DNA of 64,000 nt from Hormiphora californensis (taxonomy: Eukaryota > Animalia > Ctenophora): the NCBI GenBank assembly GCA_020137815.1, contig CM035351.1, positions 2,108,001 through 2,172,000 on the forward strand. The letters are read 5' to 3'. Position numbers and translations under genes: made by a program. Below the pieces are notes generated by a model. It saw nothing but the letters and a program-made list of their open reading frames with translations. It made no database searches and had not been told where the DNA came from. How positions within the stretch are numbered: position 1 is the first letter of the stretch; each line of letters opens with the position of its first letter. This document shows, one piece after another, positions 10,747 through 64,000 of this stretch.

Positions 10747-10804
10747 CCCGTCTGATTCATTTGTCCAGCCACAGAGAGAATAACAAAAACTCTGAATATC
10801 AAAC

Positions 10805-13585: not shown

Positions 13586-14142
13586 TATTTAGTTGCTGTT
13601 GTTGTTGTTGTCCAGTGGGTTCGTGTGTTTGTGTGCGTAATAGTTTGTATTAATTTGTGATAGTCCTTGTGTATCACCTCATGCACGCCCTATTTGTTTA
13701 TCACTTCATCTCACCTGCTGTATTGTAACGGTAACTTCAGTTCACTCTGTACTGTTCATATGAGACTTGCTCCTCTGTACAGTGTTTAGTTTATTATTAA
13801 AGTGCTGATTTATAATTTTATGTTGATTGACGTGTGTGATTTTAGTTTTTACTATATATTTATAATTAACACTATTTATTTTTGTAGCCCGATGAAGAGG
13901 TAGATCCTCGAAACTGGTAGCGTCATTATACCCGTCTGATTCATTTGTCCAGCCACAGAGAGAATAACAAAAACTCTGAATATAAATCAAAATGAATGCA
14001 GTACAAATCTGCTATCGACATTCGACGATGGACAAGCTGTGCCCTGCACCCTAAATCAATAATGTATTTGTATCTACTGCTGCAACTAAAATAACCGGAT
14101 AGGAGCAATACCCGGTAGCAATATACCGTAGAAATGAGCTGT

Positions 14143-27334: not shown

Positions 27335-28840
27335 TCTCGCTCTCTCTATCTTTTTCTCCCCACTCTCGATAATTCATCAATTTTTCTTCCTGCACAGGAT
27401 CTCGATCAGTTTGCTTATGACTCAAATGATACTACTTACTTGATACTTGGAACGGTCTCCTCAATCATTCGAGTGGCCGGCTTCCGGTATCCTCACTCTT
27501 AGCGTCGTAAGCTGTCGCCATTCGTTACGGTTCATTGCAGTCGTAGTAATTGTACGGATAGACTGGGATTTTCCTGTAGCGTCTCGATAGTCATTTAACA
27601 CACAGGAGGACCAAGTTTTTCGTGGTCTTCCTCTGGATCGTTTTCCATGACTAGGCACCCAATGATAAAGTCTGTTGGGAACCCTATCCTCAGGCATTCT
27701 AATCATGTGCCCAAACCATCGGAGTCTTCCATTGCCAATGAACGCAGATAATGGTTCTATCCCAGCTCTCTCCAATACCTCCCTGTTAGACACCCGCTTA
27801 TACCATTGTATTCTCAGGATTCTCCGCAGGCACCGTTGGTGGAATGCCTCCACGCGGCGATCTTGCACCTGGGTTGTTGTCCAGGCCTCACAACCATAGA
27901 GAAGCACCGTCAGAACAGCAGCTCTGTATATCCTGATCTTGGTACAGGTCCTGATGTTACGGTTGTACCAGATCCGACAAAGCATACTGAATGCACTGTA
28001 GGCTTTCCCTATCCTGATACCCAGCTCCTTGTCGATGGTACCATCAGAGGACAAAGCCGATCCGAGATAGGTAAAACTGGAAACCTGCTCAACCGGATTA
28101 CCCTCCACAGAAATGCTGACCGTATCCGCCTCGGAAAATGGGCGCTGGCTAAGACCCTTTGAAAAAGCTACAACTTTGGTCTTCTTCGCGTTAATCTTCA
28201 AGCCAGCATACCCTGCGTATTTTACCAGCAAATCTGTAGACTCCTGGAGACCTTCCTCAGTATCATCCATAACAGCCATGTCATCAGCATAGTCGAGGTC
28301 CATGATCCATTCCCCACCCTCATCACTCTCAGCGCCGTGAAGAGTGAGACCCCTGGAGACAGTCTTGTTGGACTCAGCAAGCTGAGCCGCCCAGTTAATC
28401 ACGATGTTAAAGACTGGAGGACCCTGGATGTCGCCTTGACCAGTACCACTGAGAACACTGAACCAGCTGGAGAGCTCCCCACCATGTCTCACTGCACTCA
28501 TAGTACCGTCAAAGAATGCTCGAATTATCCGGACATACTTCTCTGGAAGACCGTAATGGCGAAATGCGGCCCAGACGAAATCCCTGTTTATACAATCGAA
28601 AGCGGATTTGAAATCAATAAAGTTTATATACAACGGTAAATTATAATCGATACACTGGTGGATGATGGTACGGAGGGAATAAATCTGATCCACACAAGAC
28701 CGGTTACGTCTGAATCCACACTGATTCTCTCGAAGTGCCAATTCAAGACCATTCAAATGATAGGGGGAGTAGTTTTCCTTCATAGGAGTTTTTTTCGTGT
28801 CTTCTCCGTCTTAGGAGTTGTAGTTTGTGTAAATGTGTAA

Positions 28841-31817: not shown

Positions 31818-34800
31818 TAATATGATATCTTATACATATAAATATACACATGCATACATTATACAATATTGTAATTTCATAATATAATGTATTATTTATG
31901 ACTTATTCATCAGTAGTGTTACAGCTAATGTATGTTCCACAAAACATCGGAATCAGATTTCTCAATCTTCCTGGACTAAATGACCTCACTCTGCTTGCTG
32001 CAGAAGGTAGAGTCGTCCTGGCAAACTCCTACGTTCTAGCGGCCAACAGTCCTGTTATCAAAGAAAAGTTAACAAGAAATGGCCGCGGGAAGGAGAGATA
32101 TACTGGCGAGTCATCAGGGGAAACATCCCAGAAGGAGGATGATAAAGGTCTGGAAGCCGATTTAAATGGTGTGCCGACTGAGGGAAACAGCATTGCTGAG
32201 CAGACTGTAGGAACAATGGAGATTGACCTGTCTGAGTTTTCTGAAGACACAGTGTGGAAGTTTGTTTTGTGCTGTTATGCTGGAATTCGTTTGTACAAGG
32301 GGGAAGATACAACTGAAGTTGATAAACTGGCTGACTTCCTTGAGGTCAAATGGTACAAAAAGGGGTGGATAGAGAGACTCAGCGAGTTTTTTAGCATAGA
32401 ATGGAATTTACAAACAAGTATGGTTCCCCAAAATTTCGGCGATGAAAACCTTGAAGTTGCTTGTCTCCTAGACATTAAATTTGAGACTCTGGGTGGAAGA
32501 ATGGTCGAAGCCAGTTCTTTTGTTATGGCCTGCAACAGTCCTATCATCCTAGAATTAGTGGGCAAGAAGAAAATGAACGAAGTTGATTTACAGGAATTCT
32601 CAGATGGTGCAGTAAACTGTTTTGTTTATGCGTGCTACACTGGTTCGGTTACACAATTCCTCACTGAGGAATACTTTCGAGAGATCAACAAGTTGAGTAT
32701 AGCCCTGAAAGTTAAATGGATCCGGTCAGAATGCCTTACGTTCTACTGCAAGCTTTGTGCAAACTTGACAAACTCTCTCGAAAATGCGCTATTCCTTTTT
32801 GAAGAAGCGGCATTTCTGATGAGAGAGGCAGGGAATCAAGGTAGGAAGTTTCAAAGGGCCCTTGATATTGGCCTAGATTGGAATCCTGATTTGCGATTGA
32901 AGATTGTTGAGAGTTTTATGGCCCGGAATCTTGCGAACGAATTTACCGCTAAAGCGGATCTTTGCATTCAACTGGCATATTCATCAGCAGCTATTGAAGT
33001 TATCTACAAACGTTTTGTTGATCTCCTTTCGGAAAAAACTCAGCCGTTCACTCTAAACGAATGTGAATCCAGATTCATAAACCACGATGCTCTAAACTAC
33101 TGCGAAATGTTTTATCCAGAGTTATACTATGAATTTATGAAAAAGTTGTATTCAGGATGGAGCATCGATGATCTAAGGATGGGATTTGGTATGCCAGGTA
33201 GAGGTCTGTCTGTTAATTATTTCAGATCAGAATCAGCCGACGAAATTGAAATCCGAGAGAAGATGGAGTGGGGAAAATCTCTAATCGTTCAGTTTCCAAT
33301 TGACTTTCAGTTTCATGTGTGGGAATTTGATATGATAAATAAGCTACAAGAGAGTCTGACTCGTCATCAGCTTTTGGAAGCCATGCATGAGGTTGACTCA
33401 ATTCTAGGATCAAACGAAGGTTTATTTCAACACATGCATGAATGGTTTACACTTGAATTCTTTGTAAGACTATTTTTATCCATTGCTGACGGCGTCAGGC
33501 CGCCTGACGCTGTGGATGAAAGACGAAGGATACCTCGTCCCGCTAATGAACCTCTTGCATTAAGAAATTGGAAAATTCTGGCGAATACACTTTTTGTAAT
33601 AACTTTTATGGTGTTGTTCTTTGAATATTTTATTTCATATCTTTGTGGCATAAATATTATAGATATTAAGATAAGATCATCACGTCCGTTTTACTATGCA
33701 TTGAAACTTTCTTTTCTTATTATATTTGTATTATATCCATTTCTCATCGCTTTCATCGATGTATACTGGACCAGTGAAAGGGTCTGGAGTAATCAAATTT
33801 TGAAAGGAATTGTTTGGCTGTTGAAAATGTATAATACAGCAAGAACAAAGAACAAGCCTAGCCGAGTTATTGTATCTGATGAGATAGAGGGAGATATCCG
33901 GCAATATTTTAATATCTGTTTGGATCTTCAGGGTGTTTGTAAGAAATCCCCAACCTCTTCTACCAATCGGTGCAGTATTGCAGTTAAAGTTTCTACTTGC
34001 TTTGCAGACGATTCGTTGAATGTTAAAATCCAGTTGTGTGATGATAGGAAATTTCTTAACGAGAAACAGAGAGAGACGTGTTTACATCAGGATCAGTCTA
34101 TTATAAAATCAATGTTTGTTCGGGTTGGTGGTCGGTCGATTACGGCCCGATTTCAGGGTCGTCGCTATAACGATATATACAATTACAGTGACAGTAACCC
34201 GGCCACCATAGAATATCCGGGAAGTGGGTCTGCGAAACTGATCCAACAGGGCCCACTGGAGCTATTCTGGCTTCCAATGATACCCAAATAAAAATGTGGC
34301 GGTTATATAATGTTATGTACTAAATGCTATAGTGTAGTTCCCTGTTTCATCATGAGTTCATTTTTGCATGCCACTGCAGCCGCAGTTTTTAGCATGATAC
34401 CTATGTTCTATAAGATATTTTCCTTCATAAGAGAGGATTTGTATTGAAGTTACTATACCTAAAAAACTAAGTCACCCACCATTATAAGTAAGATAATATA
34501 GAAATATATATGATATATCTGAGTTAGTAGAGGTTGGTGTTAGGTGTGGAGGTTGGTGTTAGGTGTGGAGGTTGCTGTTAGGTGTGGAGGTTGCTGTTAG
34601 GTGCGGTGGTCGGTGCTAAGTGTGGTGGTTGGTGTTAGGTGTGGTGCTCTGTGTTATATAGTCTTGACTCTAGGGTCTGTCTAATACTTACGGTCTTGTC
34701 CATAAACAGCAATTTCAGCGATGTTGTAAATTGTCGCAAGTTTTTCGAATCTGAATAAGTGTTAGAATGTTAGAAATGGTACAGGAAATATTTGGTCTAG

Positions 34801-39636: not shown

Positions 39637-42600
39637 ATGGTCCTACTCGTCCTATTTCTCGGACTACTCCTAACTGCCACCCTATCGGATGAGGGTAGTC
39701 CCAGTCATAGGCACTTTTATGTGGATCCTGAAATGAACGATGTGGGGGTCTTGGCTGGAGATAAAGTCAGTATGGGACATGTTTAGACCTCTTTAGTTTT
39801 TCTCAGAATTTGTTGAGTAACGACTCGGAATATATTTATTTTCAGTTTTTACTGCTAAACACTCCCCAAACACTCTTTATGCCTAGGTGGTTGGATTGAT
39901 ATCTGATAAGATAGTTGGGTCCTCGAAAGTCCTCCAGGGTGGCCCCAGCTCGCGTGTTATCCTAGAGGACCCGCCCCCTGAGGGGGAGGAGGAGCAGCAG
40001 GGTGATTGGGATAGAGAAGAGGAGGAGCAGGGTGATTGGGATAGAGAGAATGAGGGTGGTTACCAAGACAACCATAAGGTTCCAGAGGATGGTTACCAGG
40101 ACAACGTTCCAGCTGACAGTGAGATGGATGATGACCGTGCTGATGATGAAGAGTGGAGCGAGAATGAAAAGGAGTGGGAGAACGATCAAGAGCAATGGGA
40201 GGAAAATGAGGAGGAGAAAATGGAAGATAAAACTCCTTATAAGGAGGAGAAAAACGAAGATAAAACTCCTTATAAGGAGGAGAAAAACGAAGATAAAACT
40301 CCTTATAAGGAGGATAAAAACGAAGATAAAACTAATGGTGAAGACCAAAACGAAGAAAAAGTTCCGGCGAGGGAACCAAAGAAAGATACAACTCCCGGAG
40401 AACAGAAAGAACAAGTTCCCCGGCCTCGTCAGGAGGGAAGGAGCGGGGAAACAACTGTAGCTCCCCGAAAACGACCAGATCACGATCAGGTCTTTGCAAC
40501 ACTCACAGCATCCACGGACAAAACGCTCACCCTAGAATTCACATCAAGTGTCACCCTCACAGCCAAGTATGATTATAATGAACGGGGGGGCGTCACCTTT
40601 TTTTTTGCCCATTGCCCATAATCCCAGCGAATTTTGGTTTTGCCCATATGGGCAAAATGGGCAAAAATGGGCAAAAGTGGGCAAAAATGGGCAAAATTAA
40701 ATTTTCAGTGTTATATGTCCTTTTTTCAACTCTATACCTTGATGTCATCTCTTAAAAACTCGGTCAGAATGGTCTTTGGTGTCTAATTAGTAGTCAAATT
40801 GTTTTTAGTGGTCAAATCCTAAATTTAGGTTTTTTTAGGTTTTTTGGCTTTAATGGGTTTTAGAAACGTCCTAGAACAAAATAAATACAAGCATCTTCCT
40901 CAGCGTGAAATTCTGCTTCGATTATAGTGGCTATAAACCTATCTATGATGTAAGGTGCAGGAGTTATTTTTTTGCCCATATTTGCCCATTTTGCCCAAAG
41001 TCCCACGATTTTTGAAAATTCACTTTTGCCCATATGGGCAAATATGGGCAAATATGGGCAAATATGGGCAAAATAAAAGGTGACGCCCCCCCCCCCCCCC
41101 CTAATGAACTCACTGAGTCACTTAGTTACGAAATAACCCCTTCACGCAAGCGGGCAAGGGAGGGGTTATTTTGTAACCAATTGAGTCACTGACCTCTTTA
41201 CAACCTCAGAGTAACATGTAAACCTCAGAAAAGTACATTTTCACCCTTTGACCCCCGACCCCCTCTGGCAGGGAACTAAAAATATAACATCAATTCTTCT
41301 CAGAGCGTTCCAACTGTGTGTGGTGAAGATCAGAGGACCTCTAGCGTGGGCACCACCCTCAGTTTCTTTCGACAATCGAGAGGTAAACTTTTCAAACCCG
41401 GCGGGAATAATAAAATTCAAGTACAGTCGGACCCCGATTTAACGGCCCCCGATTTAACGGCACCCCGATTTAACGGCAGGATAATCTTCCCCCGATATAG
41501 GAAATTAACAGTATTTGACCCCGATTTAGCGGACACCCCGATTTAACGGACAAAACCCTTTCCCCCGAGGGTGCCGTTAAATCGGGGTCCGACTGTACAA
41601 TCATTGATTTCTAAACAATTAACAAGTAATAATTGATTTCTAAACAAATAATGCCTCCCTGTACAGTTTCGGCAGTACAGTCAAGCGGTTATCCAGCATA
41701 CGGATGTTCCGATTGTTATGGGTGAATTTGGGAGATCTCATCCACCTGGCAAGGTATTTTGATGAATCATTGCTTTCAAACCAAACACACTAGACTAAAT
41801 CAGTCAGCTTGAGAATAATACTAGTTATTACTATGTGAGCCATACTATAATCGGCATACTATATGTTTAGGGAAGGACAATAAACGGGGTCTAGAGACGC
41901 CAGACAGCTTATAGCTATGGGGAAGGATGATATTATAGAGAGTTGAGAGGGCTATATGTGTTGTAAAGACAGCTAGCTATCTCTTGGTGCATGTAAATAA
42001 TAGAATGAATAGAATTAATATAGACTAATCTTTCAAAGCTTTGCTTAGCTTAGGAGACTGAGCTATGCTTGGTAGACAAACAAACAAACAAACAAATATA
42101 AATCTGAGCTCTGAAGGCTGCACCGGTCCAGTTTACCACCAACCCATTTCCATTAGGTGGTTCTTGGTAATGGAATGTGGTATGGTCGCATGAAGAATGG
42201 TCCCCTGCTACCTGACTCCTACTACCACGTTTTCTTCCGTCTAGTTGTTGCTCGCGATGAAGAGGTAATTGGAACAGTCATCAATATTTCAATTTCCATT
42301 GATTGGTTGAATGATTGACCAATGTTTTGTTAATATATGAACAACTCAAATTCCTATAAAATACCCTCCTACTCAGCTTACTAACAGCTCCTACCCACTC
42401 ACTAATGTTTTGTTTCTAACCCTCCCACTGCACTCAGGGTGACAAGTACCGGAGTCTCCCATACATGGGGTCCACCCAAACCGGTAACGCTGCTGTCTTC
42501 AGGACGGAGCCAGCATCTCCCCTATCCTTCTTACCCTCTGGCGGAGTTCTCCTTTGGTTGCTTGTGATAGCGGTCCTAATAATGATCCTGATTATCCTCT

Positions 42601-45303
42601 ACACATTCTGCCTTCAACTCTGTACACCTACCAGGTGAGATTCAGTGAATCGTAGAGAGAGAATGGGAGACAGTGCTATCTTCTGTTTTGTACAGTTGTT
42701 GCTTGGTGAGGGGAAGCAGTCTGAACAATTCAACGTTGACTAAATTATATATTCATTATTCGTGATTACCATTTACCTGCTCTAATGATTTATTTATTTT
42801 CAGCAACAAAAAGAAGAAGAAAAAGACTCTGAAGGAGTTGGGTAGCTCATCTAGCTCAACATTACAAGAGACGATCAGAAGACTATCTTCCTCTTTCCAT
42901 CAACACATAAAGTCCCGTGTTAACCCCACTAGAGGCAAGGTGGTTGGTTTCTCGGAGGAGGGGACTAGTGAGGAGAGGGAGGATATAGAAACTGCGGCCC
43001 CTGTGGACCCCTCATCCCCTCCTACTACAGTGATTTCTAGCGATGAGGAAGAAGGTTCTACTTGCTCAACTACAAAACCATGGGATTCTGTATCTCTAAC
43101 CACCTCAACCACTCTACCCTCGCCTCCCTGGGATGAGGGAACTAGTGATGACGTTATAAGTTATACCTCCACAGAGTCCGAGATTATACCCAAGTCCCAG
43201 TTGCAGACATCCTCACAAAGTGAAACTAAGATTGTCTCTGAACCAGTCATTATCACTGCCAAAAGTGGCAGTCCTGCGGTCGAGTTTGAGGAGCCTAAAA
43301 TGGCATCAGCCCCACGACAATCTGTTTATGAGAAGTTCAAGTTTGTGGGCGAGCTCAAGAATCTTCTATCTGGGAAACCGGGCATGGGAAAGAATAAGAA
43401 AGGAGACAAGAAGATCACATCAGAAGGTCAGGTTCAAACTCGTACTGTGCAGTGTGGGACTGTGGAATCCTCTCACAAGGAGGTGCAATCAGAAACAGTG
43501 GCCTCTGTTAGCAAGTTGGTCCAGGCAGATCAAAGTCCCAAAACGAAGAGCATAATGGTTCAATCAGAACAGATTGTAGCTGATGTCCTCACCTCCCCGA
43601 GGGTCCAGTTCCAGTTGGATCAGCTGGCCATGGAATCTGACACTACACTTCCCAGCTCAACGTCAAGAGCTTCTAAACCAACCTGGGATACCTCGAATTC
43701 TTCTTTAGAAATCTCTGCAAAGCCCTTTGGGACGCAAACATCAGGAGCTTCTAAATCTACCTGGGATAGCTCCAAGTCTACTTTAGAAATCTCTGCAGAA
43801 ACCCAAAAATCAAGTTCTAAATCTACCTGGGATAGCTCAAAGTCTACTTTAGAAATCTCTGCAGAACCCTTTGGGACCCAAACATCTAGTTCGAACTGTA
43901 CTATTGATTTTCCCTCCACTGCCACACAAACCGACCAACCTGATATCCGGACCCCAGACCACAATCACCAGACAAACAGTACACAAGAGAGAACCCCAGA
44001 TCACGTGACTCCTAAAACGTCAACTTTGGCACCTGCTCAAGTCACCCCACTGGCTGATATCTCCATGGAGAAAGGTGTCCAATACTCACCTGTCATGACA
44101 CCCATGGCCGACACCACAGCTGCAACCAGACATAACAACATGGTTGTGAGACCAAGACGGTCAGATGAGTATGCGTCTCTTGTCCAGAACAACGCCCCCT
44201 ACACACCCACTAGGATCCGGCCCCGGGGTTCTGAGCTGGGTAAATTGGGATACCTCGCGGAGCTCAATAGTCTCATGAGAATAACAGAGAAGAGGAAGAA
44301 TGATGAGAGGAGGGCTATGGAACAACTCATAGCTGGCAAATCTCCAGGAAGGAGAACAGAGAACAGTCCAATTAGCAGCCCGATCAGACATTCATCTTCT
44401 CCTGCTACCCCAGATTCAACCCAGACACAATCAAATGTTCTGGAATCCTGTAACTATCTCCATGAGAACATGCCCCAAATAAAGGCACTCCTTGAGCCAC
44501 ACAACCAGGAGAGGGAAGGGCGGACCAACGAAGGAGGGAGCCCACATGGGTCTGCTGTCAGTGCAATACCTGGATCTAATGAGCCCGAGCAAGAGACGTT
44601 ATATGCAGAAACGGCTACCCAAATGAGCAACACGAATTTGTGGAGCCCTCCCGGTTTAATTGAGGTAGCCACACAGATGAGTGACCACGGAGGGTTTACT
44701 GTGGACACCGGTATCCAATACTCGGGTAGTTTGGATAGGCTGTGGATGGATGATGAAGAGAAAACGAAGAGTCCATATTTGGACATGGGGGCCCTTCGGA
44801 GGCACCTGGAGAAAGAAGCCATGTCAGGTTCAGGGGGTCGCGATGGTAACAAGGGTGATAAACCCCGGGGCAAGAGTTTTTCGAGGATTCGAAATGCTCT
44901 CTCTGGGGTTTTCAGGGATGTACACAAGACAAAGTCGGGAGACGGTAGTGCAGATGGGAGTTTGATCAGCGAAGTGTCGTTCGAGGAATCGGTCTGTTTT
45001 GAGTGTCACGAACCTGCTCTTCGTGTTAATTCTCCCAACATACCCACCTCAGAGGACCTCAAAGCGAGGATAGAGACAGCCATACAGCGCCTGGCCGAGG
45101 GACAAGCCGGGGCTACAGACGACTACCCAACTCTGGCCACCATGCCATTTATAGTACGGACCCTTAGTCAGCCTGTTTCCGAGGCGGGAAGTGTTATTGA
45201 GACCAATAGGAGGAAGAGTGTAGGAGATATGGTGAGACAGTCTAGTGTTATGATATGCCCCTGTTGTAGTGCTACTAGTGCTGCCTCACTCACAGAGAAA
45301 TGA
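39637..45303 (+). CDS. Type I membrane protein: signal peptide, acidic region, RPTP-like juxtamembrane domain, TM, ~830-aa disordered tail
   Basis: Phase-consistent exons 39637-39765, 39887-40566, ~41304-41382, ~41668-41753, ~42158-42264 (VVLGNGMWYGRMKNGPLLPDSYYHVFFR), ~42439-42634 (TM VLLWLLVIAVLIMILIILYTFCL), 42804-45303 (starts with NKKKKKK stop-transfer). Confidence 0.75.
40584..41101. mobile_element. MITE with G-run/C-run termini and 8-bp TSD (intronic)
   Basis: TSD TAATGAAC at 40576-40583 and 41102-41109; TIR GGGGGGGCGTCACCTTTT; subterminal ATGGGCAAA repeats. Confidence 0.88.
41424..41595. mobile_element. Small pogo/Tc1-type MITE
   Basis: TA|CAGTCGGACCCCGATTTAACGGC ... GCCGTTAAATCGGGGTCCGACTG|TA with internal CCCCGATTTAACGG repeats. 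Confidence 0.88.
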
Positions 45304-51992: not shown

Positions 51993-53153
51993 TTATGTTC
52001 ATTTGAAGTTGCACAATCCCCTGGTATACCTAGCTACCACCCAATTCACTGTGTCAATGTGATGAAGAGTGTCAGCTAAAATAACTTTCTAAGAACTGTT
52101 GACTATCACACAGAGCAACAATTCTTGGTAAGACAGTAAGATAGATGAATTCTTCTTCTTAAATTGTGTACCCAATGGTGAGCACTGAGCTGCCTTCAGC
52201 TACATGGTTAAGAATTCAGACAGCACCTGATGATTAAATTGGTCGGTCACCACTTAGTCCTCAAATTACCATTCGCCTTGGTGACGCAGTCACCCTTACA
52301 ACTCGTGCGTGAAGCGCGATAAAACAACTCGTTGTAAGAGAGGCACCACCAACCATTCGCCAGCATCGTGTCGCCACTCGCCATACCCCATGGAGAGCAG
52401 AAGGGCTGGGGACGAAGTACATAGTAAAAACTTGGCATGAGCTGCAACGCAGATACACTCATACACAGTGAGGGTCGCGGGATGTGCATCATTTCATGCA
52501 GCTCAAGATTGAGCATATGTCATATTGGTAAATATATCTGGGCGATGTCTGGACGACGTCAGCAGCAAGTCGCTATTCACTACCCCAACACCGATTGGCT
52601 TAGTTGATTGATGTCCAGGCCCCTTTACTTTGGTACGGGATAAGGCAGCGCTTTTCAATTGACTTGGCCTACGCTGCAGTCCCTCTTAACCCTATCAAGG
52701 AGCTGGGAAGGTCGGGGGATTGGCATATTCTGTATTCAGTATTCTACAGACAAATACTCACTAGAATGCACTAATAATTCAACACTTAACAAAGAGTTTA
52801 AGTTAACTTGTAAACTGTTTAACGTTTCCACGCTGCTGCAAACGCTGCTGGCCCTATTTGGAACACACTTCCGCAGTCTGCGTCACGTAGTGGGATACGG
52901 CAGCGCTTTTCAACCGAGTCGGGAATCCCGGCCTGGCCAGGCAGGCGCCAATACGATCTGGGTGTTTGGGAAGCCTGTTTACAGGTGCACGCTGGCCGCT
53001 GCCAAAAAAGTACCCTGCACTAAAACGGCTCCAACCGCCAAACCACTCAACCGTTTTGGCTAATTCAACGTTTATCTGATAGGAAATGTCAAGTACTAAC
53101 CCCAACCCAAACCCAGCCCTAACCTTAACCCTACTTTAACCCTAAACTTCAAC

Positions 53154-53194
53154 TTTCAAACTTTTCAACACTACTTTAAACAAATTAATTTGAG
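53154..53194 (+). other. Spliced-leader exon copy 1 at the CR1 5' end
   Basis: TTTCAAACTTTTCAACACTACTTTAAACAAATTAATTTGAG; identical to 58114-58154; matches the ctenophore SL as I recall it. Confidence 0.88.
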
Positions 53195-53230
53195 GTGCGG
53201 CATCCTCCACCTCAAATGATTTCAGAAGAT

Positions 53231-54529
53231 ATGTCCTCTACAAATACAACTGAGGAACAACTGCGGATAATCTCGGAGCTGGTAGCTGAAGCGGATACCC
53301 CTGTCAAGGAGGTGCTCCAAGCCTATGATCCTGAGTTAACCTATGAGGAGATGCTACCGAAGATCGAAACACTCCCTGTAAGTGACCTAGAGGCTACTGC
53401 AGCTTTCCTCGGACAAGAGGTGACATGTGTGACTGGAGCGAAAAAATACCACTCAGAGAGAACACTGTCAGACTGGATTATCATGAGGACTGAGGCTCTC
53501 TTTCCCCAAACATGTAGAGAGTGTAGTGAATCCTATACGGTGAAAAGGACTGATACACCCCCTGTTCGGTGTAACTATTGCGATGCTGGACTTCACAACT
53601 GTGCGGCTATCCTTGCTGAAGCTGGGAACACAACCAACACAAGGAGCCGAATATGGATGTGCAACGACTGTGTCTCAAAACATACTATTGAGAGGTTCAA
53701 CAGTCACCTACCTGAGGGAGGTCCTCCAAACCCTACTCTTAATTCAACTCGACGCAGTTCAAATAGAGAGGTATTGGACAGAAGGACCAGTCAGCCTGCT
53801 GGCGGACGGAACGATCTTGCTGGCAGAAGGAATAATGGCCCACCTACCGGTGGAGATACAGGGTCGGACACGGAGGTTTGTAAATTCTACCTGCAGAGGA
53901 GATGCCGACACGGCAAAAACGGAACCGCCAGGGTTGGAAACAGAACCTGCCCAAAAGCCCACCCCACCCTGTGTAAAAAGTTCTGTAACTATGGAACCAT
54001 GAGGAGATTTGGATGTAATACTGAAAATTGCAACCTATTTCATCCTCCCCTCTGTAAGAACTCAGAGTTACGTCACCAGTGCTTTAAACAAAACTGCATG
54101 AAGCAACATCTAAAAGATACTCAGCGGAGCCCGCCTTTTAGAGTTGATGAAGCACCCCGGAACACTGGTTTAAATGCTCGGAATGATCGTGACAGAAACC
54201 AATCCTCTCGGAGCAGGGGTGCAAACCAAGCACCTCCAAATGAACCAGGAATCTGGTCGTCTGAGCCAACTAGGGATAGGATACCAAGCAGATCCCAATG
54301 GCCTCAGGATCAGAACAGGGGCACGAGGCCTGACCCAGACCCGGCTTTTTTAGACGCCATCATCGACCGTCTCAGGGACTCTATAGCCGGGATAGTGAGG
54401 ATGGAAATGAGGAATCGCCCGGAGCGGGAGCCCGACCAACAGCACTACAGCTCCCAGCCGACCCAACTCCCGCCAGGAATGGGCAACACATACAGTCCTC
54501 ATCATCAGAGGGACAGACGGTCTTACTAA
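53231..54529 (+). CDS. CR1 ORF1 with PHD-like finger and CCCH zinc fingers
   Basis: CREC...CNYC...HNC...WMCNDC; CKFYLQRRCRHG...CPKAHP, CKKF...C...CNLFHP, C..S...CF...C..QH. An in-frame ATG also exists at 53216. Confidence 0.85.
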   Translation: MSSTNTTEEQLRIISELVAEADTPVKEVLQAYDPELTYEEMLPKIETLPVSDLEATAAFLGQEVTCVTGAKKYHSERTLSDWIIMRTEALFPQTCRECSESYTVKRTDTPPVRCNYCDAGLHNCAAILAEAGNTTNTRSRIWMCNDCVSKHTIERFNSHLPEGGPPNPTLNSTRRSSNREVLDRRTSQPAGGRNDLAGRRNNGPPTGGDTGSDTEVCKFYLQRRCRHGKNGTARVGNRTCPKAHPTLCKKFCNYGTMRRFGCNTENCNLFHPPLCKNSELRHQCFKQNCMKQHLKDTQRSPPFRVDEAPRNTGLNARNDRDRNQSSRSRGANQAPPNEPGIWSSEPTRDRIPSRSQWPQDQNRGTRPDPDPAFLDAIIDRLRDSIAGIVRMEMRNRPEREPDQQHYSSQPTQLPPGMGNTYSPHHQRDRRSY

Positions 54530-57500
54530 ATACAGCAGGACCCTCAGTTCCCAGTAATCTCTCAAAACTGTTGCTTCTAAACGCCCGTAGCCTGAACCCG
54601 TCTGCGGGCAGTGAGGCAAGGTTCAAACTGGAGAACTTGAAGGACACCATTATGAACTCAAATATTCCTGTCATGGCTGCAGCCATCACGGAAACTTGGT
54701 GGCGGGCAGAATACTCGGACGCACAGGTTAATATTCCTGGTTTTTCTGTCATCCGCAGCGATCGGGAAGGTAGGGTTGGGGGTGGCTGTGCCCTCTATCT
54801 CCACTCATCGGTGACCCCTTCCGATCAGATCACATTTTCAGATGAAAGCAACAGTGTTGTGGCGGTATACATTCCAAACATGAACTGTATTATCTCGTCA
54901 GTTTACAGGGCTCCCACAGTGCCTGTGAACCTAGTTCTTGGGATTTTGGAGGAATTTATCTCACGTCACTCGTGTGAAGATTGTCCTCCAGATGTGTTTA
55001 CGCTTGGTGACTTTAACATGCCTCAGGTAAACTGGACATCAGTATCAGCGGATCAGGGAAATGCTCTGGTTGACTTTGCTGAGAGAAATTTCCTTACCCA
55101 GTTGGTTACAGAGCCTACTAGAGGACGGAACATTTTAGACATTGTACTTACAAACAGGGTGGATTATGTTTTTGACACCGATGTATCAGCCACCCAGATG
55201 TCGGACCACTCCATGGTGTCTTGTGTCCTCGGAATCGGGATCCACCAGTCCAAAACAGAACGTGCAGCAGCTGGAAAAGGATTCAAGGCCCTTGACTACC
55301 ACAACGCAGATTTTACTGCTGCAGGAGAGGAGCTGAGCAGTATTGATTGGGACACACTCCTATCCTCTTGTACTTCAGACGATGATGGCCACTCAATTGT
55401 GCAGTGTATCAGAGAGAAGATACTAGAGGTATTTGAAAAACACAGCAAGAGAAAGAGGTTTGGTACCCAGAGAAAGAGAGATCCCTACCTGAGAAGACTG
55501 AAAAGGAGGCAGAAAAAGCTGAACTCTCGGATGAAACTGGCCAAGCAGAGATGCTCACACCAGTCCCTCATCGATAAACTCGAACGCAAGATAGACAAGA
55601 CAGCCGATAAGATTAAGGCGTACTTGTTAGGCCTGCTGGAAGTAAAGGAGAGGAAAGCCATTGACACTATCAAATCAAATTCACGGTTTTTCTGGTCCTT
55701 TGTCAACAAGCACCGAAAAATCAAATCGAGTGTGGCTCCACTCCTGAGACCTGATGGTACAGTGACTGATGACCCTCTGGAAAAGTCAAATATTCTCCAG
55801 TCGCAATATGTAGGAGTATTCAGTGATCCGTCCATGTGCTCGGTTGAGGAGGCTATCAAGGACATTCCTTCTACGACCTGCACGCTAGATGAACTTGACT
55901 TCACCCCTGGTTGTATTGAAGCTGCACTGGCTGAATTGGACCCCTACGCTGGAGCACCTTCAGATGACATACCTGCGGTTATACTATCAAAGTGCCGGAA
56001 ACAGCTAGCATACCCACTTTGGTTGCTCTGGAACCGTTCATTCACTGAGGGTGTTGTACCAGGTTGTCTCAAACGGCAACAGGTGACCCCAATTTTCAAA
56101 AAGGGTTCAAAGATGGAGGCTAAAAACTATCGCCCTGTTGCCCTCACATCCCATATGATAAAAACTTTTGAAAGGGTTGTGAGGAACAAAGTTGTGGATC
56201 ACCTGGAGGGAAATGGAATCTTCAATGATGGTCAGCACGGCTTTCGGAGAAATAGGAGTTGTCTGACCCATCTTTTGAACCACTATGACAACATCATGCG
56301 TGAACTGAATAACGGTCTGGAAGTGGACGTTGTTTATTTGGATATGGAGAAGGCGTTCGATAAAGTCGATATCAAGGTTTTATTGGGCAAGCTTGAGAAG
56401 TATGGTATACGTGGAAGACTTCTCCGCTGGATAAGTGACTTTCTTTCAGCTAGAATACAGACAGTAGTGGTGGATGGAGTTCAGTCTCGGCCGGAACTCG
56501 TCATTAGTGGAGTCCCCCAGGGCACTGTTCTTGGCCCGCTTCTGTTCTTGGTTTATATGATAGACATTGAATCACTTCTTGCTGGAACAGTCCTAACTTT
56601 TGCAGATGACTCCAAGCTGTGAAAAGCGATCAGGTCACTCAACGACAGAGATAACCTGCAGCTGAGTCTTAATGAATTTGGACGTTGGGCTTCAGACAAC
56701 AATATGTCACTCCATCAGGATAAGTTTGAGGTGATAAATTATACACTTCGCTCCACCCAACTCCTGAGGGAGCTTCCTTTCTCCACTGACAATTATCTTT
56801 ACAATGGTCCCGGAGGCGAGGCAATATCACCAAGTTTCACTGTGAGAGATCTAGGGGTCCTTGTATCTGCAGACTGCACTTGGTCAGAACACATAGGCAG
56901 CATTACTGCCAAGGCTAGACGCATGAGTGGCTGGGCACTTAGTGTATTTCGGGATAGATCCGATGATACTATGCTAACGTTACTGAAGTCCATCATTAGG
57001 CCTCAGGTGGAGTACTGTTGTCCATTATGGAGCCCGGTGAAAAAGTCTGATATCGCCCTGGTTGAAGAGGCTCAAAGACACTTCACACGTAGGATTGAGA
57101 GCTGTTCCGGCATGGGGTACTGGGATCGGCTCCAACATCTTGGTATCTTGTCCCTCCAGCGGCGTCGTGAGCGATACATGATTATCCATGTCTGGAAGGT
57201 TCTTCATGAGGTAGTTCCAAACGGCACGGGTCTCCTGTTTACTGAGCACACCCGTCTTGGTACCAGAGCATTGGTCCCCCGCTACAATTACCTCGCTCAA
57301 AAATCCATATCTGGCCCTTATGACTCATCATTCGGTGTTAGAGGAGCACAGTTGTGGAATTCCCTACCCCGTGCAGTGAGAGAGGCAACATCACTGCTCG
57401 AGTTGAAACAGTCCCTTGGGTCCTACTTAACCACCATCCCCGACCAGCCACCTGTCCGCGGTTACCGGGTGGAGCACAGTAACTCCTTGATTGATTGGAG

Positions 57501-57540
57501 AAATGACCCCAGTGTGTTTAAAGAGATGGGCGAATCATAG
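54346..57540 (+). pseudogene. CR1 ORF2 (APE endonuclease + RT) with one in-frame TGA at 56620-56622
   Basis: LNARSL, ITETW, GDFN, LDIVLTN, SDH, NYRPVALTS, QHGF, KAFD, GVPQG, FADD; ORFs 54571 and 56704 are in the same frame; LQRRRER CR1 C-terminus. Confidence 0.88.
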
Positions 57541-58113
57541 AAATGTGTTTTGCTTTTCATTGTCATTTGGCTGATACATATAACCTGCTGACTTTCCATG
57601 TCATCTGAGTGTTGGCTCCTTTTGAGCTAAAGCTTTGTGTACAATACTAAATTTATTTACGAATGTTTACGAATGTTTACGAATGTCTAACCCTAAAAAC
57701 CGCGAGTGCTGTCACTCCAAACAGTAAACACCCAGATTTTAACTTTGGCCAGGCAGAAAAAAACTGAAAATGCGTTTTCGCCGAATTTTGTGCTGCAAAC
57801 TTGACTGAATTAAGCGCCATAGCACGGCCGCGGCTAAAAAATTTCCAAAAACTCTGCAAAAGGGGAGCCGCGCACAATGCGATGTAGCTCAGCTCGGTTC
57901 ACCAAAACTTGAGACCTGGTTTCGAAAATGAAAAAATGAAACTTTCCTTTCGCGGTTCGCACTTCGCCGTTGAAAAGCGCTGCTTAATCACCCGATTGCG
58001 GAGTGGGACCTCATGACAAGCTACCAAAATACTTGGCTAAAACTCAAAACTAATTTGTCTTTAAATTTTGAACTTCCCTTGAAGAAGGTCGACCCTCCCC
58101 CGCCGCGCATTCA

Positions 58114-58154
58114 TTTCAAACTTTTCAACACTACTTTAAACAAATTAATTTGAG
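58114..58154 (+). other. Spliced-leader exon copy 2 at the L2 5' end
   Basis: Identical 41-mer to 53154-53194 (44 nt including the following GTG). Confidence 0.88.
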
Positions 58155-58188
58155 GTGGTACCTCGTGCCCCTCAATCCCCCTGTAGAA

Positions 58189-59379
58189 ATGTCCGGAGCA
58201 CGTGATGGAGCACTAACAAGAGGTGCAGCAAAGAGGGGTGGTACACGTACCTGCCTGGGGTGCAAAGCAGAAGAACAGGACGCAGATAACACAGATGTGA
58301 GTACTGGAAGGGGTTGGTGTTGGTTGTGCGAGGGATGCTATGGTCGTGTTCAGGGCGGTTGTTGTTTACCTGAGGTTAGTAGTCCAGTTGAGGGTGGGGC
58401 GCCTACTGAGGCGGATGCTGTAGGGGTGGTTCTAAATGACGGGACCTGTGAGAAAATAGCATCGATGGTTGTTGCGGCTTGTGGGTTGAAAGTTGACTGT
58501 CTGGTCAGCAAGATAGCTGACAAACTGGTCGAATATAGTGTGGAAGGGAGTGGTTTAGAGGATAGAGTTGGGGTTGAGCGGGGTTCTTTTGCAGATGTAG
58601 CAAAAAAGCAAACGACTGGTAAGATTGTGGTGAAGAATGGAGGAGAGGGTTTTGTTGATCGTGCCTCGGAAGCCCTAAGTAAGACCCCTTTAACGTACCT
58701 TAGACAGGAGAAGGATGGGAGTGTTATCATAGCTCTTCCAGATGAAGAGACTCTGTCCTCTGCAGAAAAACGATTGACTGAAATTATCCCAGAGAATGCA
58801 CAAGTTACCAAATCGGTCCGTCACCCGAAAATAACCATCAGAGACTTTCCTTTGCCATCGGCGGTTTCTGCACGGAATGCTTCTGTACGGGATGCTTCTG
58901 TACGGGATGAGCTGAATGCGAAGATCACAGAGGCCGTTAAGATAAAGAACCCTGATCTGAGAGATTTGATTGAAAGGGGTGACAAGTTCGATGTGGTATA
59001 CGTAGGTAAGAGCGGAAATAGGGAAACTGCACCAGTGGGGGTGAGAGTGTCATGCGACATTAGGGACTTGCTGACACGTAAGGGACGTGTATTTATTGGA
59101 AACAGTTCCTGCAGGGTTGAAGACCGTCATTATATCCCACAGTGTTATAAATGTCAAAGGTATGGTCATAAGTCTAATGAATGTGAACAGACAAGTTATA
59201 CTTGCAAGTTCTGTGCCGGATCCCATGATACCAGACGCTGTCCGGACATGTCGAGGGTTTGTTGTGCTAACTGTTTGAAATCGAGGGATACACAACTACG
59301 AGGAAGAGCATATTACCATAATGCGGGATCTTTGGATTGTCCAGTATACCTCCTCAAACTCAGGAACTCAAAAAACTAA
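58189..59379 (+). CDS. L2 ORF1, gag-like with three CCHC-type knuckles
   Basis: QCYKCQRYGHKSNEC, CKFCAGSHDTRRC, CANC...HNAGSLDC; N-terminal Cys motif; ends SKN*. Confidence 0.88.
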   Translation: MSGARDGALTRGAAKRGGTRTCLGCKAEEQDADNTDVSTGRGWCWLCEGCYGRVQGGCCLPEVSSPVEGGAPTEADAVGVVLNDGTCEKIASMVVAACGLKVDCLVSKIADKLVEYSVEGSGLEDRVGVERGSFADVAKKQTTGKIVVKNGGEGFVDRASEALSKTPLTYLRQEKDGSVIIALPDEETLSSAEKRLTEIIPENAQVTKSVRHPKITIRDFPLPSAVSARNASVRDASVRDELNAKITEAVKIKNPDLRDLIERGDKFDVVYVGKSGNRETAPVGVRVSCDIRDLLTRKGRVFIGNSSCRVEDRHYIPQCYKCQRYGHKSNECEQTSYTCKFCAGSHDTRRCPDMSRVCCANCLKSRDTQLRGRAYYHNAGSLDCPVYLLKLRNSKN

Positions 59380-62285
59380 GAAACGATAAAGGACAACTAC
59401 TGAAAAACAGGACTTTGAAGGTTGGTCTGGCAAACTGCTTCTCGCTAAGGAATAAGGTGTACTCCATTATCGAGTTAATGGTTCAACATAATCTTTCCTG
59501 CTTAGCACTAACAGAGACCTGGCTCAATCAAGATGAATCGGCATTGGCTGTAGAGTTTAAAGAGTTTGGCTTTACATTGGTTAATACTGCGAGACGTAAT
59601 GGGAAAAAAGGGGGAGGAGTTGGTTTCATTTTCCGGGATGACATCAAGTTTACTACTTATAACATCAAATCTACTTCATTTGAATGTACCGAGGCATTTG
59701 TAAAGGGAAGGGTAGGACTTCGCTTTTCAGTTGTCTACAGAACGGGGAATGAACATGCCCAATTCCTTACTGAGTTTAGTGACTATCTATCCTCATTCGT
59801 ATCGAAAGGTGGTGTTCCTGTGATCCTTGGAGACTTTAACGTTAGGTTCCAAGATGAGGCGGATAGTTTTACAAGGAGATTTAAGGACATCATTGATTCA
59901 GAGGGTTGGTTACAACATGTGGTTGGCCCGACTCACACCAGGGGTGGAACACTAGACCTGGTACTGACAAGAAAAGACGAAGACATTGGTTTAAGTGATG
60001 TTGAGGTATATCGTTCTCCGGCTTTACCAGATCATTCCCTTGTGAGCTTCTGCCTGGAAGTTTCTGGTATAAGTTCCACATCAGACTATAGGACGGCCAC
60101 TAGTCGAATGATGAAAGACTTCGATATAGAAGATCTAAGAAGTGACGTACTTGGATCGGATCTGTGTGGGGAGCTACCTGATGATTTAGATGACTGTGTA
60201 GCGCTATTCAATACTGAAACTCGATCATTCATGGACAAGAGAGCACCATATGTAACCAGAAGAGTGAAAACTAGAAATGAACAATGGTATAACCAGAACT
60301 ATGATAAATGTCAGTCAGCCAAGAGGATGCGAAGGAGAAAGGAAAGAAAGTACTGGGGTAAATTGGGGAAATCAACAGATCCAATGGAGTTGTTGAATTT
60401 GTACCAGGATTATGCTGAACAAGACAAAGAGACTGAGCGGGTGTTACGGAGTGTGAGAGAAGGATTTTTTGCAGCGAAGCTAGAAGGACAGCGGCATGAT
60501 CCACGGGGAACATGGCAAACCACCAACTATCTCTTGGGTAGACAGAAACCAGCGGTTGTACCTACTAACATAGCACATACGGATCTAGCTGATTCTTTTA
60601 TGGCTGCTTTCAAAGGGAAGGTCGAAAAGATCTACAGTGCGATGGATAAGGAACGACAAGACTTGCCCCACTTTCAAGACCCCACTACACATTCCAACAC
60701 ACCGCCTGATTTCGAGTTTACAAGCATCTCTGATGAGACACTCCGAGCAACTTTATTTGACATGGGGACAAAGCATTGTGAGTTGGATCCTCTTCCCACA
60801 TCATATGTGCGGAGTCTCTTTGCTGAATTATTGCCTATCCTTTCTAAAATCGTCAACTCTAGCTTAACCACGGGGGTCTTTCCTTCCGAACTCAAGACTG
60901 CTCTGATTCGACCCCTCATCAAGAAAGCTGGTCTAGATCCGGATGATCTTGGTAACTATAGACCCGTCAGTAACTTGCCTTTTCTTGGTAAACTTATCGA
61001 GAGATGTGCAGCAGATCAGTTTGTGAAGCACCTTGAAGACCATGCGTTACTGCCCAAAAACCAGTCTGCCTACCGTGCGAACAAGAGCTGTGAGACGGCG
61101 ACTCTCCGCATTCTGGATGATCTACTAATGCTAACAGACGATAAATCGAAGGTTGCACTTTTACTCTTAGATATGAGTGCTGCATTCGATACTGTTAACC
61201 ATTCTGTCTTGCTGCAACGACTTAAGAAGTTGTATGGGGTGAAAGGTACATCTTTAGCATGGTTTGAGAGCTATCTCACGGGCAGAACTGCGTCAGTATC
61301 GGTTGGGCAGGTTAAGTCGACTCTTACAGCAATTGGTATCGGGGTGCCTCAGGGTTCTATTTTGGGCCCTATTCTTTTTATATGCTACACTGCAGAGCTG
61401 GAATCGATTGCCTTAAGGAATGGTGTACATATTCACTTTTATGCTGATGATACCCAGATATACGCCGCTTTTTCGACTGAGAACTTTGCGGAGACCGAAC
61501 GGAGACTTCGAAAGTGTGCCACGGACATTCAGTCTTGGCTAACGGCGAGCTTCCTGCGTCTCAATCCATCTAAGACTGAGATCCTGATATTATCGCCTAA
61601 AGACTCCAATACTCAAAGCTCTTTCCAGCTGGTTGAGGGCGCTGAACCTTTACCTGTTGCTACTTCTGTGAGGAATCTGGGAGTGTATTTTGATGATAGG
61701 CTATCTTTTGATGAACATGTGACCAGAATCGTCAACTCCTGTAATGCTACATTGGTGAATCTATGGAGGGTAGGAGGTAAACTTTCAAGGAAACTAAAGA
61801 CTACCCTTGTGGCGAGCCTTATACACTCTAAGTTGGACTACTGTAACTCCCTGTTGACTGGTATTACGAAGAAGAATTTAGACAGACTGCAAAAGATCCA
61901 GAATGCTGCTGCAAGGTTCATTTATGGCCAGAGAAAATGGAGGGGTACTACCAACTTGAGAAAGGCACTGCACTTTCTCCCAGTAGCTGAGAGAATTGAG
62001 TTCAAAGTATGTGTACTGGTGTATAAATGTGTCAACGGTGTTGCACCTGGCTACTTATCTGACCGAATTCAAAAAAGAAAGAGGAAATCTATGAGTCTCA
62101 GAAAAGATGACGACAACCTTCTCTTGGAGACACCAAGGGCTAGGTATAAACTAAACGAAAGTGCCTTCAGTGTATGCGGCCCAAAGTTTTGGAACCAATT
62201 GCCAAGAAGACTTAGATCTGCTGAATCCTTAAACAGTTTTAAAAGAGATCTGAAGACGCATCTGTTTGGAAAGGCATTTGGGTAG
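59370..62285 (+). CDS. L2 ORF2 APE endonuclease + reverse transcriptase, intact
   Basis: NCFSL, LTETW, GDFN, TLDLV, DH, NYRPVSNL, QSAYR, AAFD, GVPQGS, YADD, SKLDYCNSLL, QNAAAR, WNQLP. Confidence 0.95.
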   Translation, partial: KKLRNDKGQLLKNRTLKVGLANCFSLRNKVYSIIELMVQHNLSCLALTETWLNQDESALAVEFKEFGFTLVNTARRNGKKGGGVGFIFRDDIKFTTYNIKSTSFECTEAFVKGRVGLRFSVVYRTGNEHAQFLTEFSDYLSSFVSKGGVPVILGDFNVRFQDEADSFTRRFKDIIDSEGWLQHVVGPTHTRGGTLDLVLTRKDEDIGLSDVEVYRSPALPDHSLVSFCLEVSGISSTSDYRTATSRMMKDFDIEDLRSDVLGSDLCGELPDDLDDCVALFNTETRSFMDKRAPYVTRRVKTRNEQWYNQNYDKCQSAKRMRRRKERKYWGKLGKSTDPMELLNLYQDYAEQDKETERVLRSVREGFFAAKLEGQRHDPRGTWQTTNYLLGRQKPAVVPTNIAHTDLADSFMAAFKGKVEKIYSAMDKERQDLPHFQDPTTHSNTPPDFEFTSISDETLRATLFDMGTKHCELDPLPTSYVRSLFAELLPILSKIVNSSLTTGVFPSELKTALIRPLIKKAGLDPDDLGNYRPVSNLPFLGKLIERCAADQFVKHLEDHALLPKNQSAYRANKSCETATLRILDDLLMLTDDKSKVALLLLDMSAAFDTVNHSVLLQRLKKLYGVKGTSLAWFESYLTGRTASVSVGQVKSTLTAIGIGVPQGSILGPILFICYTAELESIALRNGVHIHFYADDTQIYAAFSTENFAETERRLRKCATDIQSWLTASFLRLNPSKTEILILSPKDSNTQSSFQLVEGAEPLPVATSVRNLGVYFDDRLSFDEHVTRIVNSCNATLVNLWRVGGKLSRKLKTTLVASLIHSKLDYCNSLLTGITKKNLDRLQKIQNAAARFIYGQRKWRGTTNLRKALHFLPVAERIEFKVCVLVYKCVNGVAPGYLSDRIQKRKRKSMSLRKDDDNLLLETPRARYKLNESAFSVCGPKFWNQLPRRLRSAESLNSFKRDLKTHLFGKAFG

Positions 62286-62385
62286 TTTTGGCGTTAGAAG
62301 TCTTCTGTGTGGGTTGTGGTTTGTTTTATGTCCTGGCGTTTGTGTTAGGCTTTGATTGCATCGGGGGTTTGTAGTGTGGTCTTCC

Positions 62386-62625
62386 GGTGGAGTCTGTGAA
62401 GTGGTGGTGGGGTCTGTGAAGTGGTGGTGGTGTCTGTGAAGTGGTGGTGAGGTCTGTGAAGTGGTGGTGGAGTCTGTGAAGTGGTGGTGAAGTTTGTGAA
62501 GTGGTGGTGGAGTCTGTGAAGTGGCGGTGGAGTCTGTGAAGTGGTGGTGGAGTCTGTAAAGTGGTGGTGAAGTATGTGAAGTGGTGGTGTAGCATGTGAT
62601 GTGGTGGTAGGGTCTTTGAAGTGGT
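62386..62625. repeat. 20-bp minisatellite (~12 copies)
   Basis: Unit GTGGTGGTGGAGTCTGTGAA. Confidence 0.9.
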
Positions 62626-64000
62626 GCCTCTTTTGGCTTTGAAGTGAGGCTGTGGGAAAGGCTGTGTTGTGGTGAAGTCTCGGATGGGAGGTCTTTCCTT
62701 TTACGTCCTACATTCCTCTACAGTGCTACATTCCTTTCATTACTACATTCCTATTTTGACTACATCCCCTATAACTACATCATCATCTGAAGTCCTTTCC
62801 TCCAACATATGAGTAAAGTAGGGGTCTGATATCATGTCAAGAGTGTCGAGTTTTTTGAGTATATTTTCTGGTTGTATTGTGACAGTGTGTTTTGAGTTTC
62901 TTTCCTTTCTGGCTAGAGTAGAGTCATAGGTTCTTTGAGCGAGCGAGTGAACCAGCCTGAACAATGTTCAGTGAACATCACGGAGGGTATTACGTTCTCG
63001 AAGACTTCAAGACGATAAACATACATGGACTTTATACGAGTGTGTTTGGAGAATAGACTCTAGAGTTTCTAAGTTGGGCAGCTCTTAACTTTATATCTTC
63101 TCTATCCTAGTTACTTTAAAATTACTTTAAATTAGAACCTAAATACTTACGTCTAGTACAGTTATCTATCTTACAGCTTACTATATTTAGCTTAACGTTT
63201 TTTCGTACATTAAATTTTAAACCCAACCGCATTAATTAACTTATTATGACTGGCTATTGCACTGGTCTCCTGCCTTTTTTATTTTTTACCGCTCTAATTA
63301 ATTAATTTATTAACAGCTTTGTATTTAACCTATCTGACTGACCTCTGGTCTCTTGCTTTTTATTTTTCTACCTCGTTATTCATTAATTTATTACCAGCTT
63401 CTTTAGAATTTTCCATAGGCCATTTATTAGATCATAACCTTATATAGCAATTATATGGTTAGTGTGTATTACCTTATCGGTTATCCTGTTACAGTTACTT
63501 TATCCATTAACTAATTACTTAGCTATTCGCCTCCTTTTTAGATCACTAGCCTTTTACTTGAATTAATTATTAACTATACTACTTACTTAGTATTTACACT
63601 ATGTACTTATTAATCAACAGTTAATTATTTAACTAGTTAATTATCTAACGAGTTAATTATCAATTATCTAACTAGTTAATTTCTCAATTATCTAACTACA
63701 TACTTAATCACTCAATTAATTAATTACGCTATTTCCTAATTATATATTTTATAACCCTTATTTTCTACATACATTTATATATATTATATCGAATGACTGC
63801 CGACGGTTTTTTTAGGCCTTTAGGATCTTATAATCCTATAAGAGCCGCTTTAGAAGGCTTGTTAGTGGTGGGTGCGTTGCTTCAATCGACTGATTGAAAC
63901 GGCGTCCTCCTAGCACTAACAATGCATAGGCCCAAAAGCGGGATATAAATTATAATTGTATTTGTATTTGTATTTGCATGAAACTTGAAACTTGAAATAT

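Follow-up and report, generated by a model that had tools for sequence, protein, structure and literature searches.

The 5' ends of long interspersed nuclear elements (LINEs) are easily lost, and the usual remedies are an internal promoter or a self-cleaving ribozyme. Host spliced leader (SL) sequences have been reported in association with retrotransposed DNA or transposon RNA in several systems. In flatworms, for example, six SL copies were described as merged with transposons and as possibly trans-spliced and retro-transcribed, or misassembled (Boroni, 2018; PMC5832876), and a second report mentions 597 partial-leader loci near long terminal repeat (LTR) or LINE elements, which were discarded and for which the same origin was suggested (PMC12582326). 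Dinoflagellate retrogenes bear leader relics, for which the passages concerned propose both re-splicing at the AG of the relic and a promoter role (PMC5585692; PMC12014239). The SL is reported on about 30% of Hydra transposon reads (PMC12220107), SL-targeting retrotransposons are described as using a restriction-like endonuclease (PMC4640811), and a preprint presents U6/L1 and mRNA/L1 chimeras, with trans-splicing proposed for some of them (bioRxiv 10.1101/2025.02.02.635956). Here we consider two LINEs in a 64,000-nt stretch of the genome of the ctenophore Hormiphora californensis (GCA_020137815.1, contig CM035351.1, positions 2,108,001 to 2,172,000, forward strand; hereafter the window), each of which is headed by a copy of the SL exon of its host.

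The reading that we favour, at a probability of roughly 0.9, is that these copies derive from trans-spliced RNA that was reverse-transcribed almost to its cap. It draws on the identity of the leader, the exactness of the exon boundary, the position of the leader inside the inserted DNA, and its occurrence at the heads of multi-copy families in two clades. Both elements are APE-type LINEs with two open reading frames (ORFs), and in both ORF2 matches Pfam PF03372/PF14529 (APE endonuclease) and PF00078 (reverse transcriptase, RT). We provisionally take one to belong to the CR1 clade and the other to the L2 clade, labels that come from C-terminal motifs; their ORF2 products are only 25-28% identical. 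The features of both elements, and of the host repeat that received CR1, are as follows (UTR, untranslated region).

52899..52913, + strand: left 15-nt inverted repeat of the host repeat receiving CR1; a second direct copy lies at 52644-52658, and many related copies occur in the DNA runs
53096..53145, + strand: degenerate TAACCC tract in the host repeat, on the left side of CR1; contig joint 53145->57687
53146..53153, + strand: 5' margin of the CR1 insertion, up to 8 nt ahead of the SL (boundary approximate)
53154..53194, + strand: SL exon copy heading CR1; the first 2-3 nt of the leader are missing
53182..53222, + strand: predicted 15-bp hairpin, 53182-53197 with 53208-53222 (prediction, with shuffle test)
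53216..54529, + strand: CR1-type ORF1, 437 aa; PHD-like and CCCH-like cysteine clusters by eye, no Pfam match
54529..57540, + strand: CR1-type ORF2 frame, APE and RT, interrupted by a stop at 56620-56622
57656..57686, + strand: short tandem 3' tail of CR1, 3.1 copies of a 10-nt unit
57687..57984, + strand: remainder of the host repeat to the right of CR1, with the inverted repeat 57970-57984 (14/15 match) at its end
58114..58154, + strand: SL exon copy heading L2; insertion likely from 58111 (an X5 contig departs from the window at 58110)
58155..58188, + strand: L2 5' UTR, 34 nt; first 21 nt 14/21 identical to those of CR1; weaker predicted hairpin with the SL end
58189..59379, + strand: L2-type ORF1, 396 aa; CCHC-like knuckles by eye, no Pfam match
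59379..62285, + strand: L2-type ORF2, APE and RT, 968 open codons, intact
62286..63997, + strand: probable long 3' region of L2, its end not fixed within the window

The initial annotation had called both elements full-length. Each indeed has its two ORFs, and both L2 ORFs are open, but the CR1 ORF2 contains an in-frame stop and the 3' end of L2 cannot be placed: its 3' region holds a 20-nt tandem array (62386-62626) and two candidate tails (63956-63976 and 63979-63997). The CR1 stop is missing from all other contigs compared; P0132 reads through its position, and an ORF2 relative of CR1 in the protein collection is 961 aa long, unbroken and 93% identical. The spacing from leader to ORF1, given earlier as 35-37 nt, is corrected to 34 nt in L2 and 21 nt in CR1, where a second in-frame ATG follows at 36 nt. 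One gene model, P0124, enters a relative of CR1 ORF1 (83% identical) at a YAG situated 31 nt past the position of the leader and fuses it with a cyclic-nucleotide-binding domain, either as a model artefact or as an exonised element.

The block that the two elements have in common (53154-53197 and 58114-58157) is identical over exactly 44 nt and extends in neither direction, as had been noticed at the outset. It forms a single pair: no third copy was found on either strand of the 64-kb window with up to 14 mismatches allowed, and the chance expectation for such a pair is about 6e-21. The accompanying remark that no other shared sequence was seen needs a slight correction, as 14 of the next 21 nt are identical and CCTCAA stands in the same register in both. 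The first 41 nt of the block are the ctenophore SL, an identification made earlier and now confirmed by two comparisons. They agree with the published 44-nt leader of H. californensis at 41/41 positions, with its first three letters missing, and they are the exon of an SL gene in a 778-bp SL/5S array (locus L008). The match to the published leader makes a pleurobrachiid ctenophore the likely host. In addition, the leader heads three host-type ORFs (loci L001, L004 and L009), and in X17, a run whose RNA nature is guessed, 501 of 508 records fit both leader copies and then run on into varied sequences; this run covers the LINE bodies hardly at all and has no bearing on their expression. The account of the leader in PMC8527503 counts 718 copies in the H. 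californensis genome and places it on 56% of Iso-Seq reads. Rfam at gathering threshold returned 0 matches in the window, and no Rfam model matched this ctenophore-type SL RNA; the translated leader peptide was absent from the first 120 residues of 131 fetched proteins.

An exact leader scan of metagenome contigs gave 11 loci: five further SL-headed LINE families, two ORF1-like elements, three likely mRNAs and the SL/5S array. Four of the families (L002, L003, L005 and L011) carry the leader, an ORF1 and an APE-RT ORF2 of L2 type, L011 ending within the RT, and in the fifth (L007) the leader is followed by a CR1-type ORF1 and endonuclease. L006 and L010 have an ORF1-like frame after the leader and are without RT; they are not counted as proven LINEs, their atlas matches being leads only (0.90 for L010, with PHD in 25% of members; at most 0.86 for L006). 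L006 (55-1258) consists of a single ORF1-like frame with a frameshifted C-terminal part, a short 3' region and a 7-nt tandem tail; it could be a non-autonomous element with ORF1 alone. In L010 (whole contig, minus strand), a PHD-like ORF runs into a tandem repeat and is probably a third type of LINE ORF1. In L001, L004 and L009 the host-type ORF starts 1-3 nt past the leader, whose 5' tip is kept, and these are likely mRNA contigs. The contigs with elements were taken as DNA, as inferred from their non-leader flanks of 7-352 nt (1 nt in L010).

Together with the two window elements, the seven scan elements provide nine element-type copies, and all nine pass to element sequence directly after the final AG of the exon. 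The upstream letters differ in each of them, and none (0/9) contains SL intron beyond the GT. The base that precedes the 41-mer in the leader, a G, is kept in 4/9 copies, which is not beyond chance (p 0.05-0.17), and no copy retains the full published 5' tip. It is because of this exact boundary in 9/9 copies, the lack of SL intron and the complete ORF1s that an origin from trans-spliced RNA seems to us so probable. A fixed junction of this kind is difficult to reconcile with chimeras formed at insertion, in which the RT would switch template from LINE RNA to SL RNA or to a leader-capped mRNA. Such sense chimeras of small RNA and LINE are known (bioRxiv 10.1101/2025.02.02.635956), but template switching would yield varied junctions and SL intron or mRNA sequence, whereas every junction coincides with the exon boundary and is followed by a full-length LINE part. 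We regard this explanation as largely refuted and very improbable.

The scan also bears on whether the elements inserted site-specifically into SL RNA genes, or into stray copies of the SL, in the manner of NeSL, CRE or SLACS. In L008, two SL copies 778 bp apart, each followed by GTAAG, alternate with 5S rRNA; the features at 263-381, 695-735, 1041-1159 and 1473-1513 form a tandem unit of SL RNA gene and 5S rRNA. In favour of insertion into such a gene, a GT follows the exon directly in both window elements, as it does in the SL gene. However, the match between L008 and the window is limited to 43 nt, that is, to exon plus GT, and the upstream sequence, intron and 5S sequence of the SL gene lie beside neither element, so the earlier statement that the LINEs are not inserted into SL genes stands. 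The GT is also absent in 6/7 scan elements, the endonuclease is of APE type, and the CR1-free site described below is likewise without SL, if that contig is a true allele. Taken together, this leaves insertion into SL genes with hardly any credibility. In an exact scan, the last 22 nt of the leader were found in 0 viral contigs and 0 prokaryote genomes, and protein scans of viral contigs gave no relative of these elements.

Four DNA runs (X3, X5, X7 and X11) were compared as contigs, which prove presence and not absence and from which rare forms drop out. One contig joins 53145 to 57687, skipping both SL and CR1, at a flank-like depth of 51 in X3 and 272 in X5; the joint may reflect either an allele without the insertion or a closely paralogous copy of the host repeat. 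Another contig (X5, record 19) tracks the flank of L2 to 58110 and then departs. The boundaries of both insertions thus map 3-8 nt upstream of the 41-mer, and the leader lies within the inserted DNA. This agrees in part with the proposal that the block is the true 5' end of CR1: the leader does belong to the insertion, but the edge probably falls up to 8 nt before the SL and not exactly at it. CR1 is flanked by the host repeat, as had been described, although the inverted repeats match at 14/15 positions and are not a perfect 15-bp pair. A 10-nt match (53137-53146 / 57688-57697) is a candidate target duplication, but it falls within the repeat tract. The host repeat itself (52637-53145 plus 57687-57984) is non-autonomous and very abundant; it has inverted repeats of 15 nt, and its TAACCC tract resembles telomeric sequence.

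The same runs show that the leader heads whole families. In X3, possibly the sample from which the window comes, the flanks have depths of 38-49, whereas the CR1 5' contig reaches 376 and the L2 body 267 (depth is not copy number); the CR1 5' contig is unbroken for 427 nt from inside the SL through 53612. At a fine scale, 6/6 X3 records and 3/3 X11 records at the CR1 start reach into the SL or begin within it. They represent about four related CR1 5' ends in X3 and two in X11, which, judging from where the contigs start, diverge past the leader, at 53197-53216. One X5 copy is truncated within the SL and bears another flank, and one of the loose ends is an adapter. A further X3 joint (53153/58114) connects two leader-adjacent pieces on opposite strands at depth 85, possibly head-to-head leaders or a fold-back. 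On contigs covering the CR1 start, no outron-like or other non-SL 5' head was found in the four runs, a weak negative since contigs drop rare forms; a promoter or 5' UTR shared upstream of the SL by family copies, which the initial annotation had named as contrary evidence, did not appear there.

These observations are relevant to a second possibility, namely that the SL-headed copies are processed products of one or a few masters with a promoter and an outron, and that they rarely transpose again. Ordinary biology would then explain why the junction is exact, why the leader is perfect and current, and why related L2 families have their junction at a homologous position, and no GAG acceptor would be needed; the SL on about 30% of Hydra transposon reads (PMC12220107) is in keeping with such a source. 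Against masters of this kind stand the lack of a non-SL head on contigs of the four runs, the continuity of the X3 5' contig over 427 nt from inside the SL, and the presence of young, intact families in many lineages, which could not renew their master sources because splicing removes the outron that each new master needs. We judge it unlikely.

Comparison among families suggests that the leader has been kept current. Among the four scan L2 families, identity is 56-67% in ORF2 and 47-79% in the 70 nt that follow the leader, and the leader, in a search for exact matches, is still 41/41. Relatives of both window elements include Mnemiopsis leidyi proteins, and in a quick tree of 27 rows, in which the CR1 row is a long and unreliable branch, the window L2 clusters with Mnemiopsis elements apart from the four scan L2 families (SH-aLRT 92, under the 95 mark). 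PMC8527503 implies that the Mnemiopsis leader has mainly a 3' motif in common; given this and the grouping of the window L2, the leader heads have probably been updated more than once. At a loose end at 53215, X7 and X11 contain a family from a second organism whose start differs from that of CR1 by at most 4 letters over 38 nt, and which then carries a 10-nt word also present in the L2 UTR. This suggests a short 5' module common to the clades or exchanged between them.

An alternative is that the leader was acquired a single time by trans-splicing and is now an internal promoter or start element, with transcription of the copies beginning near its first base and no further splicing. The predicted CR1 hairpin is of interest in this respect, as it would shield the junction from splicing. 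Since CR1 can pair over 15 bp of its own sequence with the SL end, the element would seem adapted to carrying its leader, and a promoter role has been proposed for the leader relics of dinoflagellate retrogenes (PMC5585692; PMC12014239). The absence of tandem relics in 5 informative copies, and of the full published 5' tip in any copy, also fits a head that is simply inherited. Conversely, the leader is identical to that of the host gene though neighbouring element sequence has diverged by 21-53%, and the conserved upstream region of the SL gene is missing from the elements. The hairpin is matched in strength by at most 1/200 shuffles in CR1 and is significant for the window CR1 at both lengths tested and for L2 at 30 nt only, but in 0/5 other LINEs. 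Among the likely mRNAs it is clear in 1/3 and borderline in a second. A general hairpin across the junction, clear in 1/3 mRNAs yet significant in 0/5 other LINEs, was rejected. On balance, we find an inherited, unspliced head improbable.

If the copies derive from trans-spliced RNA, as we favour, a renewable cycle can be envisaged. LINE RNA would receive the host SL by trans-splicing and would be copied by reverse transcription nearly to the cap, so that the integrated copy starts with the SL exon. This copy is predicted to be transcribed by read-through from its flank, and a new round of splicing at the terminal AG of its leader copy could drop the flank and the old leader and add a fresh, capped one. 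Splicing at the remaining AG would thus rebuild the 5' end in each round, requiring no promoter and leaving no tandem relics. The integrated 41 nt contain two G and a single AG, at the very end; the second AG of the leader sits at its 5' tip and is usually lost from copies. An upstream leader relic was seen in 0/5 copies with at least 38 nt of flank. We consider read-through with re-splicing at the terminal AG in each cycle an evenly balanced proposition.

Several points weigh against our interpretation. The acceptor would be GAG, a rare and disfavoured acceptor in spliceosomal introns, and inspection by eye gave CAG or TAG for 4/4 acceptors of host genes. Each window element begins with a GT...YAG stretch of 31-32 nt whose pyrimidine-rich YAG looks the stronger site, yet no copy spliced there, and so lacking these nucleotides, occurs among the fine-scale contig records. 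The predicted 15-bp hairpin of CR1 hides the AG of the SL, the GT and the first ATG. The window CR1 cannot serve as an autonomous source because this copy is broken. In addition, the exact-match search could return perfect leaders only, which biases the 41/41 conservation, and the lack of an outron-bearing master rests on contigs, which lose rare forms. The fine-scale listing gave pieces for 8/26 X5 and 8/22 X7 records, and its junction comparison covered CR1 only.

It is tentatively proposed, at slightly less than even odds, that several clades of ctenophore LINEs have convergently adopted a cycle that needs no promoter; most dispersed leader copies in these genomes, of which 718 were counted in H. 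californensis, would then be retroelement heads and not SL genes. If true, host trans-splicing would be a third remedy for the loss of 5' ends, one that frees LINEs from promoter sequence and makes their activity dependent on transcription by the host and on the supply of SL. The hundreds of leader copies, and the 'shared first exons', reported in ctenophore genomes would also gain an explanation that can be tested. Leader matches would then not equal SL gene counts, and the leader would become an exact tag of full-length copies. The role of the integrated leader, as acceptor or as promoter, becomes directly testable.

Other features of the window include further retroelements. A Penelope-like element (7778-13989) has a 926-aa ORF (10805-13585) with a weak GIY-YIG match and an inverted partial copy with 2113-nt arms that are 100% complementary; it has no leader copy, and therefore not every retroelement in the window is leader-headed. 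A 5'-truncated RT element (27461-28810, minus strand; Pfam RVT_1 and DUF6451), presumably RTE-like by its motifs, is also without leader. A multi-exon host gene (41650-45303, + strand) ends about 8 kb upstream of the LINEs on the same strand as both and is a possible source of read-through. The window also holds a single-frame 797-aa BTB-domain ORF (31898-34291, + strand) and near-perfect tandem arrays at 18544-19800 and 20421-21500, with periods of 32 nt and 41 nt.

A full-text search, with subscription journals and Repbase outside its scope, found no published leader-headed LINE families in ctenophores and no tested renewal cycle. The family-wide leader head of ctenophore CR1- and L2-type elements thus appears to be new, although its ingredients have been published. 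The suggestion that nothing of the kind had been described for CR1 or L2 needs qualification in this sense: the ctenophore families are apparently undescribed, but passages in the two flatworm papers already suggest integrated trans-spliced transcripts (PMC5832876; PMC12582326).

The flatworm loci resemble the ctenophore elements in that a genomic SL exon is joined to LINE or LTR elements. They are partial leaders noted in passing, however, whereas in ctenophores near-complete leaders form the regular 5' ends of multi-copy families, with evidence for the insertion boundaries. The retrogenes of dinoflagellates are DNA copies that likewise start with the leader and meet it at the boundary of its exon, but they are host genes copied in trans and bear tandem relics; the ctenophore elements have an RT of their own, and the 5 informative copies are free of relics. 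In Hydra, transposon RNAs receive the SL according to the RNA-level data reported, whereas the ctenophore case concerns genomic copies. U6/L1 chimeras likewise consist of a LINE preceded by sense-oriented sequence from a host RNA; these are sporadic, contain the whole small RNA, usually have a 5'-truncated LINE and vary in their junctions, in contrast to the exon only, complete ORF1 and fixed junction seen here. NeSL, SLACS and CRE elements are also non-LTR elements adjoining an SL exon, but they sit in SL gene arrays, whereas the ctenophore elements are of APE type, are dispersed and bring their own leader. Finally, the ctenophore elements share with LINEs of the CR1 and L2 clades two ORFs and an APE endonuclease with RT; the window CR1 also has a short tandem 3' tail and no LTRs, and L2 has two candidate tails. 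Where those LINEs have an element-specific promoter UTR, the window elements have the host leader and 21-34 nt of 5' UTR, which reaches up to 188 nt in their relatives from the scan.

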